Origin: a virus
Length of the DNA: 64,000 bases
Strand: one strand, 5' to 3'
Virus record (IMG/VR): IMGVR_UViG_3300018077_000007
Coordinates: 20,524-84,523 of that record
The number at the start of each line of letters is the position of its first letter. Positions within the stretch are counted from its first letter, which is position 1. Position numbers and translations under genes: made by a program. The notes under the pieces were generated by a model. It made no database searches. It worked only from the letters and a program-made list of their open reading frames with translations, and was not told the origin of the DNA. Shown here in pieces: positions 10,359 through 59,062 of this stretch.

Positions 10359-11580
10359 CATCCTCCACCGGATTGAAGTCCGGGGATTCCAACACCGACG
10401 CCACCCGGAAGGAGGCGCGGCATTGAGGTTCGCGGTTCACTGCCCGGCGGTGCTGCACCAAGGCTCCCCGCGCTGGCACGGCCTGTCCGGCCGCGATGTT
10501 ACGTGCTGCATTGGTATCGGCATGGCAGTGGAACCCGCAGACTACGCAACGGAAGCTCGCTTGGCTCTCACGAGACGCCGCCGCGACATGCCCGCACTCG
10601 CTGCACTGCTGGCTGGTGTACCTCGGGTCAACTCGGCGAACTCTCCCGTGCGCTTTGTGTTCAAGGCGCGTGAGGAACAGGCCCCAGCCTTGCGCCAAGA
10701 TGCTGCGGTTGAGGCCGGCCTTTTGCGCGACATTCCGACCGGGCGTTTGGAGGGTGCCGTGCGCCGAGCGCGTCATGGCACCGACGTTGAGATTCTCGAC
10801 CTTCAGGACATCGTAGCGGCGGGCGAGGCTCGTGGTCGTCTGCTCCACCCAGTCCTTGCGGCGGGCCGTCTCGTGGGCTCGGAGCCGGGCGATGGCACGC
10901 TTGACCCGTCGCCGACGGTTCGAGCCCCGCTGGGCGCGGGCGAGGCGGCGCTGGAGCCGGAGGAGGCGCTCCGCTTCCTTGGGCCGCAGGACAGGCGCGT
11001 GGAGGCTCTCGCCTTCACTCGTCATCACGCTGACGGCGACTCCACGGTCAAGGCCAACGATCTCGCCCGTCCCTGGGCCGGGGAGGGGTGCCGGGATGTG
11101 GGCGAAGGCAATGTGCCAGCGGCCTGCGGGATCGCGCGTCACGCGGTACGATTTTACGCATGGAATCGGCCTCGTCTGTCGAAAGCGCACCCAGCCGATC
11201 TTCGGCACGAAGAGCGCCGTATGACGACGGTTCAATCGCCGCACATGACTGGGTTGAAGCGCGACGATGCGGAAGCCCTCGTCACGATCCCGCTTGCGCC
11301 ACGTCGGGCGCCGGTGAGTGCCCCCGAAGAAGTTCCGTTTGGCTTGGTCGAAGTCTCGGAGTGCCTGCTGCTGGACGATGACGCTGCCCTCGGCGAGCCA
11401 TGGTTCAGCCGCACGCAACTCCGTGAGTTGCCGGCTCAATTCGGCGTAACCGGGCGCTGTCTTTCCCGGTTGCCAGAGTCGCCACTGCTCCAAACAGAGG
11501 TTCCAGAGAAACCGCGCCTGACCGCAGGCGTTTACCAGCATGGGCTCTTGTTCACGGGAGGGGTACAGGCGAAAGCGCAT
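10228..11580 (-). CDS. tnpB: RNA-guided endonuclease TnpB
   Basis: RFRLYP N-terminus; RuvC-I GLDRG, RuvC-II VENL, zinc finger CSECG/CVVCG, RuvC-III ADTNAARNI; ORF reads through the right end. Confidence 0.95.
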   Translation of the reverse strand: MRFRLYPSREQEPMLVNACGQARFLWNLCLEQWRLWQPGKTAPGYAELSRQLTELRAAEPWLAEGSVIVQQQALRDFDQAKRNFFGGTHRRPTWRKRDRDEGFRIVALQPSHVRRLNRRHTALFVPKIGWVRFRQTRPIPCVKSYRVTRDPAGRWHIAFAHIPAPLPGPGTGEIVGLDRGVAVSVMTSEGESLHAPVLRPKEAERLLRLQRRLARAQRGSNRRRRVKRAIARLRAHETARRKDWVEQTTTSLARRYDVLKVENLNVGAMTRSAHGTLQTPGRNVAQKAGLNRSILAQGWGLFLTRLEHKAHGRVRRVDPRYTSQQCSECGHVAAASRESQASFRCVVCGFHCHADTNAARNIAAGQAVPARGALVQHRRAVNREPQCRASFRVASVLESPDFNPVEDVKSRTLPASHLHTGPPASRATASPRPSETGIPARSTAPVCPRP

Positions 11581-19301: not shown

Positions 19302-20999
19302 GTGGCCATCACCTTTGCGGCCCCCGCACCCACCGGGGCAGGGCTCTCGGCCTTCCTGGACGCCTACCTCAAGGGCCGGGGGGTTAAGCGGGAGGAAGAG
19401 AGCGACGAGCTCCGCCGCACCCTCGCGGCCATGCAGCTCCTTCAGGCTGGCCAGGCGTATCAGGCGGGCGAGCGCACGACTGCCGAACAAGCCCTCGTGC
19501 CAGAAGCGATTCAGCGGGCTCTCGCTGTGCCGGAGCGCACCACGGCGCTCCCGGCGACCGGCATCCCGGGCACCGAAGCCGTGCCCCAGGTCTCGGAATA
19601 CCCCGGCTATGCCGCGCCCGCCGAGATGCCAGGGCGCACCGTTCCGCTTGGACGCACCCCCGCCGATGTGCTGTCCGCCTTGCAGCCTGAGCAGATGGTG
19701 GCGTTGCTGAAACACGCGCCCGGCGTGCTCCCCGCGATGGGGCTCCAGAGCGAGGAACAGATCCGCCAGCGGGAACGCCGGGAGCAAGGCCGCCAGAAGA
19801 TGCGCACCCTCTATGCGCAAATTCAAGACCTGGGGAAGTCCCGCCGGTGGATTGACGAGCTGGACAAGGAAATCGAGGGGATGGGGGTTCTCCTGGAGAT
19901 GGCCGACACTCCCGAGCAAATGGCGGGGGTGCAGGGCGAGCGCCGCAAGCTGTTGGTGACTCGGAAAACCCTCGAAGATGACGAGATTGAGCGCACGCTT
20001 GGCCCGCAGGAGAAAACGCGCATCTGGGAGGCCGTGGAGACCGCGCGGGTCGCCAAACTCAAGGGCACAGATGTGGCCCCCGCCATGAGTGCGTTGCACC
20101 AAGCGATCGGCACCGCCACGACAAAATTCGGGCGGGCCGAGGGGGAGAAGATCACGGATCGCATGTCGAAGAAACTCCTCGATGATCTCGTGGAGGACCC
20201 GACCGAGCGCGAGTTTCATCGGGCCGTCTGGACCGACGTGCGGGGGCGGCTCACGGCGAATGAACCCTGGTCCCCGGCGCTCTGGGCCAAGTCGGCGCGC
20301 GCCGTGATCGCAGCGGACCCGCAGCGGTACGGGGCGATGGGGTTCACCCTCCTCCAACATAAAACGGTCCCTGACTGGTTCAAGGAGGCATTCTTTGCGG
20401 GGGCGGGCACCGTGCCGGGACTGACGGACAAGGGACTCCCGCCAGAGATCCATGTCGGGAAGATCCAAGAGGAAGACGAGGCCCGTCGGCAAGGTCGGTT
20501 GCCGACGTTGCAGGGCACGATTCAGAAAGCGCAAGCCTGGGTGCAGGGAAAGGCCACCCGCGATCCGGTGGCCTTGGCGCAATTGCGCCAGATCACGCAG
20601 GGGCAAGTCGATCAGGCCCAGCGGGATGTGCGCGACGCCGAACGCCATTTGGTCGAGGCTCAGAAGGAAGGCTTCCGGATGAGGGACTTCCTGCCAGGAC
20701 TGGAAGCGAAAGTGACGGCCGCGAATGAAGTCGTCAAAGCGCGGGTCGCTGACCTGAAAGCGGTCGAGCAAATGGTGGTGGCGTCGCTGCCGCCGGGCCT
20801 GCGGGAGGTGTATGAAAAAGGCAAACCCGCGCCTGCACCGCCCCCGCCAGACATGAACCAGGTTCGAGCCCGGCAGAAGGCCCTGACCGAGGAGGAACAC
20901 GCGAAGGAAGGGGCCACGCCCGAGAAGATCAAGGCGGCGGTGAAAGCGCGACTGCAACAGGAGTTTCCGACCCTTCCCTCCATATATTTCCCCCGATAA
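19302..20999 (+). CDS. Putative ejection/internal virion protein
   Basis: 565-aa helical protein immediately before the giant gene. Confidence 0.6.
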   Translation: MAITFAAPAPTGAGLSAFLDAYLKGRGVKREEESDELRRTLAAMQLLQAGQAYQAGERTTAEQALVPEAIQRALAVPERTTALPATGIPGTEAVPQVSEYPGYAAPAEMPGRTVPLGRTPADVLSALQPEQMVALLKHAPGVLPAMGLQSEEQIRQRERREQGRQKMRTLYAQIQDLGKSRRWIDELDKEIEGMGVLLEMADTPEQMAGVQGERRKLLVTRKTLEDDEIERTLGPQEKTRIWEAVETARVAKLKGTDVAPAMSALHQAIGTATTKFGRAEGEKITDRMSKKLLDDLVEDPTEREFHRAVWTDVRGRLTANEPWSPALWAKSARAVIAADPQRYGAMGFTLLQHKTVPDWFKEAFFAGAGTVPGLTDKGLPPEIHVGKIQEEDEARRQGRLPTLQGTIQKAQAWVQGKATRDPVALAQLRQITQGQVDQAQRDVRDAERHLVEAQKEGFRMRDFLPGLEAKVTAANEVVKARVADLKAVEQMVVASLPPGLREVYEKGKPAPAPPPPDMNQVRARQKALTEEEHAKEGATPEKIKAAVKARLQQEFPTLPSIYFPR

Positions 21000-54325: not shown

Positions 54326-54846
54326 TGGCATACTCCAGCTATTTCGAACAACTCAAACATCCCAAGTGGCAGAAGAAGCGTCTTGAGATTCTTCAGCTCA
54401 ATGAATTTACCTGCGAGGAGTGCGGTGCAGATGACCAGACGCTTCATATTCATCATTCCTATTACGAAAAGGGGCGCGCGCCTTGGGATTATCCTGAATC
54501 GAGCCTTCATTGTCTGTGTGCAGCCTGCCACCAAAGGATCCAGAATTCTCAAAGCCTCTTGCAGCGGCAAATTGGAAGGCTTGATCTTAGCGATACTGAA
54601 GTGATGATTGGCTACGCGATGGGGTTAGAGTTCCGTGCGTACCCAGTGGTTCGACTCCGCGTGTTCTCTTATGCGGTAGCGCAAGGCATCGGCGATGCGT
54701 GGGGCGTGACTCCAGAACAGATTATCGAAGCTCTTGAGGCGGGTCGGATCGACGGATATACACTGGACTCGTTGGTCCGGTTGCAGATCCAGCCACAATA
54801 CGGACTCGTGGGCGAGGTGCCCAACGCGGAGGGCAAGGAATGTTGA
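54325..54846 (+). CDS. HNH-family nuclease domain protein
   Basis: PKWQKKRLEIL..FTCEECG..LHIHH..PWDYP..LCAACH. Confidence 0.8.
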   Translation: MAYSSYFEQLKHPKWQKKRLEILQLNEFTCEECGADDQTLHIHHSYYEKGRAPWDYPESSLHCLCAACHQRIQNSQSLLQRQIGRLDLSDTEVMIGYAMGLEFRAYPVVRLRVFSYAVAQGIGDAWGVTPEQIIEALEAGRIDGYTLDSLVRLQIQPQYGLVGEVPNAEGKEC

Positions 54847-54992
54847 TCTCGATCAGCATCGCTTTGAGCGTGCTCGTGGTGGCCCTTGCGTGGGGCTGTC
54901 TCCGCGCCGCCGCGCATGGGGCGTAGGCCATCACCCCGACACCCCGAGTGCCGGTGGCCGTTGTGTTGGCCTGAAACAGAGAGGAGGATCTC

Positions 54993-55502
54993 ATGGCCGA
55001 ACTTCACACCCTACCGCCTATTGAGGCCGCTCCGCCATCCCCAGATCTCCCGGGCCAGATCGCTCGGCTCCAGCGGCACCTTCAGCGCCGGAAGGACGCT
55101 CTGGCGCGACTGGAGAAAACCCTGGCCCAGACTCGGCAGAAGCTCCGGAAGACGGCGGAACTCTACGAACTGGCCCGGGTGGCGCTGGCGATCGCGCTCC
55201 CCTTGGCCCGGCAGGATCGTCCCACCGAGGTCGCCGCAGTCTTGGAGGAAACGATCAGCGCGATTCTGTACGGGTCCCCCGAGGCACGGACGCGCATCTT
55301 CGCAGCGGCCCGGAAACGGGATGAGGCGCTCTTGACGCTGCGGGCGAAGGTGACGGAGTTACACGGGGCATTGAGCCGGGCCAAGCGCACGATTCGGGGA
55401 TGGCGGAGCCACGGGTGGACGCAGACGGAAGAGGCGCAAGGATGGGCACTCTACCAAAGCTCTCCCGAGATGCAGGAGATCAACAGGGCGCTCGGGGAAT
55501 AA
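54993..55502 (+). CDS. Coiled-coil hypothetical protein directly upstream of the array
   Basis: GAGGAGG RBS; TAA ends 2 nt before the first repeat. Confidence 0.7.
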   Translation: MAELHTLPPIEAAPPSPDLPGQIARLQRHLQRRKDALARLEKTLAQTRQKLRKTAELYELARVALAIALPLARQDRPTEVAAVLEETISAILYGSPEARTRIFAAARKRDEALLTLRAKVTELHGALSRAKRTIRGWRSHGWTQTEEAQGWALYQSSPEMQEINRALGE

Positions 55503-55504
55503 AC

Positions 55505-56085
55505 GAGCGAGCCAGAGGAGTAAAGGCACCCGCGATGAAGGAGCGAGCCGTCAAGATGGAGTCCCCCGTTATCACGGAGCGAGCCGCCAGGTTCAAGACA
55601 CCCATATCTCAAGAGCGAGCCGCGTTGTTGGAGACATCCGCGACAAGAGAGCGAGCCGGTAAACAGGAGGCACCCGTGATGGAGAAGCGAGCCGTAAGAG
55701 GGAAGTCACCCGCGACGAGCAAGCGAGCCGCCCTGAACAAGCTACCTGTGGAGGAAAAGCGAGCCGCCCAAGGTGAGGCACCCGTAATGAATGTGCGAGC
55801 CGGTAAAGGGGAGACCCCCATGAGGCGGAAGCGAGCCACGCGAACGAAGACCCCCGCAAGCGAGGAGCGAGCCGACAAAGGTGAGGCACCCGTCCAAGAA
55901 GAGCGAGCCGTGAGAATAGAGGCACCCGCTTCAGAAGAGCGAGCCGCGCAGAACGAGACACCCGTCTCAGGAAAGCGAGCCGCGCTCTTTAAGCCACCCG
56001 TGGGGGGAAAGCGAGCCTCGCTCGGTGAGTTACCCGTGACGGAAAAGCGAGCCGAAGAGATTGAGTCACCCGGACGAAATGAGCG
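55505..56085 (+). ncRNA. TIGR-type tandem interspaced guide RNA array, 16 x 36 nt
   Basis: Unit = RAGCGAGCC-N9-RAGNCACCC-N9; exact 36-nt period, variable 9-nt spacers, terminal partial repeat GAGCG; adjoins a Nop-domain gene. Confidence 0.9.
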
Positions 56086-56788
56086 TCTTTCTCCTCATCT
56101 CCCGCGCCTCGCCACGCTTTTCCAGTCGATCCAGCGAGATCGCGTAGGACTTGAACGGTCGCTGGCCACCAAAGCCGACGTGCATGATCCGAGGGCAAAG
56201 GAGATTTATGAACAGTTGATCCGCCTCGAAGAGACCGTCGTGGCCTATCTCCACACGGAATGTCATCGGAGCCCGGTCTGGCCCTGGCTCTCCAGCGTGA
56301 AGGGGATCGGCGAGCGCCTGGGGGGGATGCTGGTCGGGCTCATCGACATTCACCGCGCCCCGTCAATTTCAAGTCTCTGGAAGTTCGCGGGGCTTGCCCC
56401 GGGGGCAGATCGCCGCGTCAAGGGGCAGAAGCTCCCCTACAACAACCTCCTGAAAAAGACGTGCTTCCTCGTGGCGCGCCAATTCATCCTCGCCGGGACG
56501 CAACCCTACGAGGGCGTCTACCGGGAGGCTAAGGCGTATTACGAGCAGAACCGCCCCGAGTGGCGCCCAGGGCACTGCGATTTGGCGGCGCGGCGGAAGG
56601 CCGTCAAATTGTTTCTCGGACACCTCCACACAAGGTGGTGTGAGGCCGAGGGGCTCCCGATCCGGCCCCCCTATGCGATGGGGGTTTTGCACCATGATGG
56701 ATATATTCCGCCGCCAGAACGTGTTCAATGGTCTGTCCCACCAGCGAGCGCAAACCCAGGACTTCAGTCCGGGGACAAGCGAGCCTAG
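56036..56788 (+). CDS. TasA-like Nop-domain RNA-guided DNA-binding protein (start uncertain; frame open back to 55535/55400)
   Basis: Coiled coil then WLSSVKGIGERLGGML, ISSLWKFAGL, PYNNLLK, AARRKAVKLFL; no DEDD/RuvC or HNH domain seen. Confidence 0.85.
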   Translation: MTEKRAEEIESPGRNERLSPHLPRLATLFQSIQRDRVGLERSLATKADVHDPRAKEIYEQLIRLEETVVAYLHTECHRSPVWPWLSSVKGIGERLGGMLVGLIDIHRAPSISSLWKFAGLAPGADRRVKGQKLPYNNLLKKTCFLVARQFILAGTQPYEGVYREAKAYYEQNRPEWRPGHCDLAARRKAVKLFLGHLHTRWCEAEGLPIRPPYAMGVLHHDGYIPPPERVQWSVPPASANPGLQSGDKRA

Positions 56789-57875
56789 CATGCAGATTAC
56801 GCTGAAGCTGCGACTTCGGGATCGGCATGCGGCGAAGCTCGCCCGCCACGCCAGGGCGGTCAACTATGTATGGAACTACTGCAACGAGCGACAGCGGCAG
56901 GCGGTCCGCGAGTGCCGCCGCTGGCTCAGCTACCCAGCGCTGGCGGCGCTGACGGCAGGCACGAGCGTGGATCTCGACCTCCACGCCCATACGATTCAGC
57001 GCGTGTGCCTTGCCTATGCCGCCGCACGCCGAGCGCATAAGAAGCCGTGGCTGAGGTGGCGCGGACGGCGGTCACTCGGCTGGGTGCCGTTCAACACGGG
57101 CCACGTTTCGTTCGATGGCGAAGCCTTCACCTTTCGTGGTGTTCGCTACGAGACGATGCACCTCCGGGAGATTCCGACCGGGGCGGTGATCGGTGCTGGT
57201 TCTTTCAACGCTGACGCCCGTGGTCGTTGGTACATCAACCTGCCAGTCGAAGTGCTGGAAGCCACCAGCGCCAGCATTACCCACGTCGGGATCGACCTGG
57301 GCCTCAAAGACTTCGCTACGCTCTCGACCGGCGAAAAGATCGCCGCCCCGCGTTTCTACCGGGCGTCCGAGACCAAGCTGGCGACGGCGCAGCGCGCCCG
57401 CAAGACACGTCACGCTCGCGCGATCCACCGAAAGATCGCCGCCCGCCGGCGGGATTTTCTGCACAAGACGAGCGTACAACTTGTGAAGCGCTTCGGGCTC
57501 ATCTTCGTCGGCGACATCAACCCCTCGCAACTCGTTCGGACCACGATGGCGAAGAGCGTACTCGACGCCGGGTGGTCGAACTTCCGGGCCATGCTCCGCT
57601 ACAAATCGCGATTACGCGGTGGTGGGGTGTGCTTGGAAGTCTCGGAACATTTGAGTACCCAGACCTGCTCGGAGTGCGGCAGGTTGCCCGCTTCGAGGCC
57701 GAGAGGTATCGCAGGTCTGCGTGAGAGGGTGTGGCGGTGCGACGACTGCGGGACGGTCCACGACCGCGACGTGAACGCCGCCCGCAACATCCTCCGTCTG
57801 GGACAGCAGACGCTCGGAGGAGGAGCCCATGTCTGAGATCGGGAAGCCCCGGTCTTTAGACCAAGGAGCTGTCAC
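56726..57875 (+). mobile_element. IS200/IS605-family tnpB-only element (left boundary 56726-56729)
   Basis: Left-end hairpin CCCAGGACTTCAGTCCGGGG; right end GAAGCCCCGGTCTTTAGACCAAGGAGCTGTCAC; removing it restores an in-frame TGA for the Tas gene. Confidence 0.8.
56790..57836 (+). CDS. tnpB: Compact TnpB (348 aa) with rearranged RuvC-II
   Basis: GIDLG; FVGD instead of xED; downstream EVSE; CSECG/CDDCG; HDRDVNAARNI. Confidence 0.93.
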   Translation: MQITLKLRLRDRHAAKLARHARAVNYVWNYCNERQRQAVRECRRWLSYPALAALTAGTSVDLDLHAHTIQRVCLAYAAARRAHKKPWLRWRGRRSLGWVPFNTGHVSFDGEAFTFRGVRYETMHLREIPTGAVIGAGSFNADARGRWYINLPVEVLEATSASITHVGIDLGLKDFATLSTGEKIAAPRFYRASETKLATAQRARKTRHARAIHRKIAARRRDFLHKTSVQLVKRFGLIFVGDINPSQLVRTTMAKSVLDAGWSNFRAMLRYKSRLRGGGVCLEVSEHLSTQTCSECGRLPASRPRGIAGLRERVWRCDDCGTVHDRDVNAARNILRLGQQTLGGGAHV

Positions 57876-58002
57876 TGAACACGGTTCCTGGGCGCCGCGC
57901 GAAGAGGACTTGGATCCCGCCATTCGGCAGCGCGAGCGACGCCAAATCCTATTGAAGTGTGCTGGTTACCGGCGCGCCCGACGACGCACAGGGCCGACAT
58001 GA
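57829..58002 (+). CDS. 57-aa ORF whose start is supplied by the IS right end
   Basis: GGAGGAGGAG RBS; MSEIGKPRSLDQGAVT-EHGSWAPREEDLDPAIRQRERRQ; ATGA overlap with next gene. Confidence 0.45.
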   Translation: MSEIGKPRSLDQGAVTEHGSWAPREEDLDPAIRQRERRQILLKCAGYRRARRRTGPT

Positions 58003-58646
58003 TTCAACACAAACATTGGCAGTTCGAACGAGAAGAAGATCTCGACGAGTGTCTTCGGCAACGGGCGCAGGGCGGGTTTGCCGAGAACCTTGAAACATGC
58101 GAATTAGTTCAACTCGCCGACTCGTTGCAGCGGTGGGCGAAGACCGGGCACAAAAACCTACCGGAGTATCTCGAATCCGTCTGCGGGTTGAACTATAGAT
58201 CTCTGCGTCGCTATCTGAGCATTGTGGAGGCACTGGCCACGGTCGGGGAGCCACTCAGGAAGGCCGTGCGGGATCTGCTCTTGGCAATGGGGGCGAAGAA
58301 GGCCAGCATTCTGGCACCGTGGATCGAGGAGCAGGGCGAGGCGGTGACGGTGGAGGCCGTCGCGGCGTGGGCCGAGCAGGCGGCGGGCATGACCGAGGCG
58401 GCGTTTCAGGAAGCGGTGACCACGGCGCGCGGGGCGAAGCCCCGGGGGGCGGCAGGCGACGCCGAGGCGCAGGTCTTGAAACTCCTGCTGTCCGTCGTGC
58501 CTCCCGAACGATATGCGTGGGCCGAGCGGGTCTACCGGATGGCCGCGCGGGTGGCTGAGACGACGAACCCGATCTATGCGTATCTGGTGGCCTTGGAGTT
58601 GCTCGCGCAGGACTTGGCGCACCAGGGGCATCCGGTGGAGGGATAA
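57999..58646 (+). CDS. Hypothetical helical protein
   Basis: MIQHKHWQFEREEDLDECLRQR..; possible HTH LNYRSLRRYL. Confidence 0.65.
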   Translation: MIQHKHWQFEREEDLDECLRQRAQGGFAENLETCELVQLADSLQRWAKTGHKNLPEYLESVCGLNYRSLRRYLSIVEALATVGEPLRKAVRDLLLAMGAKKASILAPWIEEQGEAVTVEAVAAWAEQAAGMTEAAFQEAVTTARGAKPRGAAGDAEAQVLKLLLSVVPPERYAWAERVYRMAARVAETTNPIYAYLVALELLAQDLAHQGHPVEG

Positions 58647-58687
58647 CCTGTGTTCGTCGGCGGGGCTGGCCAAGGAGAACAGGGGCA

Positions 58688-59062
58688 ATGACACCTGACC
58701 AATCGCCCGTAAACAAAGCGCTTGAGCTTTTGCAAACATTGGCGGATAAAGTTGGACGGACGACGGCGGAGCTCTGGCCGGAGATGGTACGGGCGCACAA
58801 GATTCGAGCGCTCGGCGATTTTGCCGCTGCCGTGCTGCTGGCACTCATCGGGGGGATGCTGGTCGGGCTCGCGTATTCACAGCCATGGATGATGTACACA
58901 GGAGGCATTGTTGACCCAACGCGCTGGATGTGGTTGGGAATCGGGTCATTGTTCCTCTTGTTTGTCGGTGTGGTCGCCGTGGTGGCGACATTGCCACAAG
59001 CTCTCACGGTCCTCTCGGCCGCCACCGGAGATTTAGCCAAGCACCTGCTCGAAAGGAAATGA
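58688..59062 (+). CDS. Two-TM membrane protein
   Basis: LADKVGRTTAELWPEMV plus two TM helices. Confidence 0.7.
   Translation: MTPDQSPVNKALELLQTLADKVGRTTAELWPEMVRAHKIRALGDFAAAVLLALIGGMLVGLAYSQPWMMYTGGIVDPTRWMWLGIGSLFLLFVGVVAVVATLPQALTVLSAATGDLAKHLLERK

Follow-up and report, generated by a model that had tools for sequence, protein, structure and literature searches.

The systems closest to the locus considered here are the dual-repeat TIGR-Tas systems, which Faure et al. 2025 (PMC12045711) define by two alternating repeats of 8-12 nucleotides (nt), spacers of about 9 nt, and 36-nt units that lie beside a tas gene. The preprint of Xu et al. 2026 (10.64898/2026.09.09.750476) catalogues 6,685 arrays, already describes both a repressor role for TasA and an intragenic layout, and calls dual-repeat arrays within the tas coding sequence a less frequent layout. 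The subject of this report is a locus at positions 55,505 to 56,788 of the window, by which we mean the whole 64,000-nt stretch analyzed (positions 20,524 to 84,523 of IMG/VR virus record IMGVR_UViG_3300018077_000007), where a 16-unit repeat array lies 5' of, and in frame with, a gene for a Tas protein that has no nuclease domain. Judged from its sequence, the locus is very probably a dual-repeat TIGR-TasA system of a tailed phage, and every defining feature of such systems that can be looked for in a sequence appears to be present. The kind itself was published in 2025 (PMC12045711), and the locus adds no new kind of system. The original prediction, which proposed a TIGR-Tas-type system in a phage, is upheld on the first point by the homology to Tas proteins, the dual-repeat anatomy, the lack of a nuclease domain, and the 118 of 186 related loci that carry arrays with the same core, and on the second point by the source record, an IMG/VR virus contig that is 84,523 bases long and has an estimated completeness of 90%.

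Dual-repeat TIGR-TasA systems, of which FpTasA of Flavonifractor plautii is an example (Faure et al. 2025, PMC12045711), share with the window a solo Nop-domain Tas in a phage setting, an adjacent array whose 36-nt units alternate two 9-nt repeats with two 9-nt spacers, and a 3' truncated edge repeat at the end of the array. The window differs from them in that its array runs in frame into tasA without an intervening start codon, in that no terminator follows the array, the gene coming directly downstream, and in that the C-terminus of its TasA appears to have been altered by an insertion sequence (IS). SpTasH of Salicola phage CGphi29 (PDB 9W03 and others; PMC13421893), whose phage record was also matched by tblastn, is likewise phage-encoded and accompanied by a dual-repeat array; it has a homologous Nop domain, and its Y289/H296 dyad is shared with the window protein as Y213/H220, but it carries an N-terminal HNH nuclease and cuts DNA, whereas the window protein is without HNH. 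The best solved relative is TaTasR (9MTY), in which residues 107-326, comprising coiled-coil and Nop domain, align with the window protein, while the RuvC domain formed by about the first 100 residues of TaTasR is lacking in the window protein. The repeats also differ, the boxes being UG and CCA for TaTasR and AG (box D) and CCG (box C) in the window. The intragenic tigRNAs of BlTasA and others (Xu et al. 2026) have in common with the present case that guide units lie inside a tas frame that stays unbroken, though the worked example there is a stem-loop array in the wedge loop, and the window has a 16-unit dual-repeat array at the 5' end. MbTasA, a nuclease-free TasA that the same preprint shows to repress transcription under tigRNA guidance, provides the precedent for the function proposed here; it is a different TasA, and the function of the window protein is proposed by analogy with it. 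Finally, IS110 recombinases with their bridge RNA and archaeal Nop5 box C/D ribonucleoproteins have a related RNA-binding Nop-type domain (PMC12045711), but the locus has no DEDD domain, fibrillarin partner, or bridge RNA, and neither group scored in the PDB searches. The parts of the locus to which the following paragraphs refer, including the most likely open reading frame (ORF) of tasA, are these:

55505 to 56080, plus strand: dual-repeat TIGR array, 16 units of 36 nt (from the register table and pattern counts)
Layout of each unit: edge repeat (box D AG, gap CGAG, box C CCG), 9-nt spacer A, loop repeat (AG, NCAC, CCG), 9-nt spacer B
56081 to 56085, plus strand: truncated 17th edge repeat, GAGCG, the array end (from the sequence and the register table)
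55679 to 56788, plus strand: most likely tasA ORF, 369 codons (from the ORF list and a start-codon scan; the public gene call, P0001, begins there)
56036 to 56728, plus strand: conserved Tas core, coiled-coil and Nop domain (by homology to TaTasR 9MTY residues 107-326)
56672 to 56674 and 56693 to 56695, plus strand: codons of Tyr213 and His220, numbered from GTG 56036 (from the HMMER alignment)

The register table confirms the predicted 16 units in exact 36-nt register across 55505-56080. The motif RAGCGAGCC is found 16 times in the 64-kb window where 2.46 copies are expected, and none of 100 shuffles reaches 16. Fifteen of these copies fall in the array at exact 36-nt steps, and the remaining unit reads GTGCGAGCC at 55793 instead. 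The first repeat thus agrees exactly with the consensus that had been proposed in 15 of 16 units; the second, RAGNCACCC, is matched exactly in 10 of the 16 and with no more than one mismatch in 15 of the 16. When edge repeat, nine bases, and loop repeat were sought as a single pattern with up to 3 mismatches, all 16 units were recovered, and the same pattern gave 8 weak matches elsewhere in the window against 5.87 expected. A G follows the edge repeat in 13 of the 16 units and the loop repeat in 14 of them, and taken together with the published repeat model (box D of 2 nt, gap of 4 nt, box C of 3 nt), this makes the repeats AG-CGAG-CCG and AG-NCAC-CCG. On that model the 9-nt spacers occupy columns 11-19 and 29-37 of the unit, shifted rightward by one base from the register first read, and the 1-nt shift of the repeat/spacer boundary that the original prediction had suspected is real. 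Of the 16 repeats of each kind, 15 edge repeats and all loop repeats have AG as box D, and 13 edge and 13 loop repeats have CCG as box C.

The two repeats can be told apart by their gaps, since the end bases of CGAG are complementary in all 16 units, compared with 6 of 16 for the other gap, and the TIGRFinder rule takes complementary terminal bases of the 4-nt gap, which form an extra base pair, as the mark of the edge repeat. Repeat 1 is therefore the edge repeat, which had been assumed at the outset. The first edge repeat of the array is complete, and the array closes on the truncated one, an ending that PMC12045711 describes with the word "typically"; in the tas frame this terminal GAGCG encodes Glu-Arg, immediately ahead of the conserved N-terminal helix of TasA. 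A recent tandem duplication of units is unsupported, because neighboring units are no more alike than random pairs (5.4 versus 5.1 of 16 positions, permutation p 0.31). The extended tasA ORF has as its final three codons the sixteenth exact copy of RAGCGAGCC in the window, at 56777-56785, within the left end of the putative IS; no further units and no loop repeat follow it, and it may be a chance occurrence or a relic of a downstream array.

With respect to the protein, a phmmer search of the PDB with a 250-residue query (56036-56785) matched residues 107-326 of the TasR chain in 9MTY, the structure of TasR with tigRNA and DNA from Faure et al., at E 2.4e-17, and TasH of Salicola phage CGphi29 at E 4.6e-9; with a profile of 25 family members (A1), the corresponding values were 6.1e-47 and 1.4e-29. 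At cut-offs of E 10 and E 1, the PDB searches returned only Tas proteins, with no IS110 chain and no archaeal Nop5. The Nop fold is thus assigned to the tasA protein by homology to solved Tas proteins. Pfam detects neither an HNH nor a RuvC domain in it, and everything N-terminal of the Nop core is array-encoded repeat; a search for longer, fused homologues at E up to 1e-10 gave none, though this counts only weakly. Having no nuclease domain, the protein is of the TasA type, and the nuclease-less Nop-domain protein that had been predicted is borne out, with its three cited motifs located in the ORF ending at 56788 (VKGIG at 56297-56311, SLWKFAGL at 56372-56395, and AARRKAVK at 56585-56608). 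The protein also matches phrog_4285 (E 1.2e-33), and its family, counted as representative proteins, numbers 3401 at E up to 0.001, 1238 at E up to 1e-10, and 29 at E up to 1e-30. By HMMER alignment, Y213 and H220 correspond to Y289 and H296 of SpTasH, which PMC13421893 gives as the catalytic residues for pre-tigRNA maturation, and in the family alignments A1 and A2, Y213 is invariant and H220 at least 90% conserved. Such a Tyr/His dyad is said by Xu et al. (10.64898/2026.09.09.750476) to mark dual-repeat systems. The closest relative in a GenBank phage, at 40.5% identity, comes from an unannotated gene of Microcystis phage Mvi-JY20; the Tas homologues of this phage, of Arthrobacter phage Talia1610, of Rhodococcus phage Peregrin, and of 13 mycobacteriophage records bear the label hypothetical protein or transposase and are probably unrecognized Tas genes.

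For comparison, 186 related loci were fetched from viral, genome, and metagenome collections, some of them being one contig duplicated across two collections, and 191 family proteins, the window's own included, were compared. At 118 of the 186 loci, at least four units with the same GCGAGCC core and 36-nt spacing lie on the tas strand, up- or downstream of tas, and in the first 106 loci, for which stop codons were counted, nearly all arrays are stopped in all frames. Many of the relatives' loop repeats read GAGTAACCCA, which places a TAA stop in the Glu-Arg-Ala frame; in the window, TAA occurs in this frame in none of the 16 loop repeats. The two repeats covary across the family. In 90 distinct arrays of at least five units, again counting the window's, the second base of box D is identical between edge and loop repeat in 88 (A/A in 80, T/T in 8), and the third base of box C in 82 (A/A in 77, G/G in 5, with 8 mixed), the window being G/G. 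Edge-loop covariation of this sort is described for a symmetric Tas dimer by Faure et al. (PMC12045711). Within the window's array, the Arg codon is CGA in all 16 units, compared with 12% of Arg codons in the long ORFs of the phage, and the Ala codon is GCC in all 16, compared with a usage of 44%, and it is from these frozen synonymous sites that the repeats are seen to be under nucleotide-level constraint. The spacers have a purine content of 0.63. Their purine richness and codon-like periodicity were dropped as evidence for coding, since a purine content of about 0.55-0.65 is also found in the non-coding arrays of relatives. One related array, at positions 700-990 of a Candidatus Eisenbacteria contig from a metagenome-assembled genome (L081), lies upstream of a tas gene with 44% identity; its edge cores drift from the 36-nt register, only about three regular units adjoin the gene, and it looks to be decaying or irregular.

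The feature that sets the window apart from most of these loci is the continuity of the reading frame. An ORF at 55400-56788 passes in frame through all 16 units without a stop in 192 codons, compared with 11 and 8 stops across the array in the other two forward frames. The earlier description of an array followed by a protein was correct in that the array adjoins the 5' end of the gene, but incomplete in that the two are fused in frame, with no ATG between array and core. Indeed, no in-frame ATG, GTG, or TTG lies between the array end and the first Tas helix, and the next candidate, GTG 56180, is past that helix. Within the array, ATG 55679 (unit 4) has the best Shine-Dalgarno match, at -10.3 kcal/mol with AGGAGG 8 nt upstream, and GTG 56036 (unit 14) has a weak ribosome site, at -3.1 kcal/mol; the other in-frame starts are ATG 55535, 55556, 55787, and 55820, and GTG 56000. 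Translation of TasA most likely starts inside the array at ATG 55679, and about 11 array units are then most likely translated as an ERAxxxExPxxx tail ahead of the coiled-coil and Nop domain. In the closest homologues, P0002 (81% identity), P0003, and P0008, ERA-type repeats similarly run into the core without a Met. At least three in-frame units at 12-residue spacing are present in 16 of the 191 family proteins (15 of 190 besides the window's own), and 12 of the 13 proteins that have at least four periodic units use the Glu-Arg-Ala frame. The position of the units varies, with ten internal units between conserved Tas segments in P0088, both N-terminal and internal units in P0073 and P0103, and nine C-terminal units in P0100. 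Proteins with internal arrays can be made whole only if the array is translated, which makes it plausible that the array in the window is translated too, and dual-repeat arrays that may sit in frame within the tas coding sequence are also described by Xu et al. (10.64898/2026.09.09.750476). The preference for the Glu-Arg-Ala frame suggests that embedded arrays are tolerated almost only in one frame, under joint selection on RNA and protein. That preference is an observation of this analysis, while the idea of coupling is already in the preprint, where a link between tigRNA maturation and Tas translation is suggested.

Two neighboring features frame the array and its gene:

56729 to 57875, plus strand: putative IS605-family element with tnpB (ORF 56790 to 57836), from Pfam and the ends of homologues, its boundaries provisional
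54993 to 55502, plus strand: upstream ORF of 169 residues, helical, with no family match, its stop codon 2 nt before the first edge repeat

The tnpB ATG at 56790 comes 1 nt after the tasA stop codon (56786-56788), and its product matches OrfB_IS605 (1.6e-14) and the Cas12f1-like TNB zinc-ribbon family (4.1e-21) in Pfam. Homologues of tasA end 1-6 residues past an IPPP-like motif, and the window ORF continues for about 20 codons; excision of 56729-57875 would place a TGA at 57876 directly after codon 56726-56728. On contigs from other samples, the 3' ends of related TnpB genes are found in other contexts, as loose ends at 57836. Hairpins at the IS ends fold no better than shuffles (z -0.35 and -0.38), and no empty site without the IS was seen in contigs of three other freshwater-sediment samples, where the array is unchanged wherever it is covered. 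Most likely, TnpB is an unrelated IS insertion at the natural end of tasA that has lengthened TasA by about 20 foreign codons and given it a new stop. A second, distant TnpB-like stretch lies on the minus strand at window positions 10456-11133 (genome 30979-31656), with 27% identity to residues 142-348 of the first TnpB (E 2e-11). Relatives of TnpB are present at none of the 186 other tas loci, and the upstream 169-residue ORF and four other neighboring ORFs that were tested are beside tas at none of them, a replication-initiator ORF being the one that recurs, in 4 of 186. The suggestion that TasA might recruit a separate effector accordingly finds no support among these neighbors. For the 54993-55502 ORF, neither the viral collection nor the surroundings of other tas genes yielded a relative. 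Around the locus, PHROG matches are to a replication initiator and to HNH endonucleases; no Rfam family was matched in 54500-59000 at E up to 1, a promoter scan of 54800-58200 found none, and no close phage relatives were found by way of two flanking ORFs.

An important consideration is how far the array is to be regarded as RNA, as protein-coding sequence, or as both. We put forward tentatively, as a possibility that stops short of being probable, that it doubles as coding sequence, such that TasA starts inside it with at least 11 ERAxxxExPxxx repeats and the cutting of its own edge repeats serves as TasA shut-off. Were the 36-nt periodicity nothing other than a protein-coding tandem repeat, a disordered N-terminal domain of 12-residue units with no guide-RNA role, a frame open across all 16 units and the regular ERAxxxExPxxx that it yields would be explained; but the conserved residues are frozen at synonymous sites while other positions are near random, homologous arrays at the 118 loci lie up- or downstream of tas and are mostly stopped in all frames, and box C and box D covary between both repeats. 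We therefore reject a purely protein-coding repeat as highly improbable. The opposite extreme, in which the array is a purely non-coding 5' leader, TasA is made from GTG 56036 or from some other weak start close to where the array ends, and the frame has stayed open through chance and the composition of the spacers, would still leave a TIGR-TasA system, and we consider it unlikely without being far-fetched. It is consistent with the arrays of most relatives, which lie up- or downstream of tas and are stopped in every frame, with the tas ATG that in most relatives directly follows the last edge repeat, and with the purine-rich spacers shared by non-coding arrays. Against it, the ribosome site of GTG 56036 is poor beside that of ATG 55679, TAA is missing from all of the window's loop repeats in a frame where many relatives' loops hold it, P0002, P0003, and P0008 are likewise without a Met between array and core, and the family includes internal in-frame arrays. 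The stop counts themselves divide according to the null model, since composition-preserving shuffles of the spacer letters expect 3.8-5.1 stops in the tas frame (P for zero stops 0.002-0.017), and the open frame is not significant against random 9-mers of the phage genome (P 0.16) or column-preserving shuffles (P 0.14). Taken alone, the stop statistics are suggestive only.

Besides this dependence on the null model, several observations weigh against a translated array and a working system. GTG 56036 could, despite its weak ribosome site, yield a 250-residue TasA without the tail, and in L107, the nearest relative for which DNA was compared (44% identity), an ATG of its own opens tas just past the truncated edge repeat. 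Through the IS insertion, the C-terminus of TasA is changed 8 residues past the Y/H loop region, and this might affect function. The locus is present in several freshwater-sediment metagenomes, with no RNA run among the samples that hold it. Moreover, the 16 guides have no evident target in the 84.5-kb phage genome. With the array masked, a search for spacer A joined to the reverse complement of spacer B, and for the opposite geometry, with gaps of 0-2 or 0-4 nt and in three registers (9+9, 8+8, and shifted 9+9), gave best matches with 2-3 mismatches of 16-18, and shuffled spacers did equally well. The search of its own genome that had been proposed at the outset therefore returned no match above chance in either geometry, and regulation of the phage's own genes by the guides is unsupported. 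As to the identity of the protein, a remnant of an IS110-family transposase, comprising the C-terminal domain only and lying by coincidence beside unrelated repeats, would account for the sole Pfam signal, a sub-threshold Transposase_20 match (PF02371, E 0.017, 16 bits against a cut-off of 21.3), and for the name "transposase" borne by PHROG and protein-atlas clusters. These names are automatic labels derived from PF02371, however, and the PDB searches gave only Tas proteins, the protein is without the DEDD (N-terminal RuvC-like catalytic) domain, and arrays co-occur with the protein family, so that such a remnant is hardly credible. It is also very improbable that TasA and TnpB form a composite system, in which guide-bound TasA recruits or regulates TnpB as a RuvC nuclease. 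The 1-nt spacing of the two genes and a full-length TnpB ORF with both its OrfB_IS605 and zinc-ribbon TNB domains would suit such an arrangement; set against them are the lack of TnpB relatives at the 186 other tas loci, the homologues that stop 1-6 residues past the IPPP-like motif where the window TasA extends into the element, the related TnpB 3' ends in other contexts, and the second, distant TnpB elsewhere in the same phage.

Returning to a dual-repeat TIGR-TasA system whose array is also translated, a sequence of events can be proposed that draws for most of its steps on the published family. The array and tasA would be carried on one transcript, and TasA dimers would bind box D and box C of the edge and loop repeats. 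Cutting within the edge repeats by way of Y213 and H220 would then release up to 16 tigRNAs of 36 nt, in which the two spacers would pair with opposite strands of an 18-bp site, spacer A with one and spacer B with the other. Having no nuclease, the complex would act as a sequence-specific roadblock or transcription repressor, for which MbTasA is the precedent. Its targets would lie outside the phage genome, which no guide matches better than shuffled guides do; 18-mers are expected to match large collections by chance, as the preprint also states (10.64898/2026.09.09.750476). Two further steps are specific to this analysis. TasA may carry a disordered ERAxxxExPxxx tail, and with the likely start codon inside the array, guide maturation would cut the 5' coding part of TasA's own mRNA, which would limit TasA synthesis and so couple guide output to TasA shut-off.

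TIGR-Tas systems are compact, RNA-guided DNA binders that are free of a protospacer-adjacent motif, and to our knowledge their natural roles and the origins of their spacers are still unknown. The locus described here is a clean example from a phage, in which the array is long and the maturation dyad intact, and it documents AG and CCG box variants that covary in both repeats. Its less common layout, a dual-repeat array that continues in frame into tasA, makes it a natural test case for the coupling of tigRNA maturation to Tas translation.

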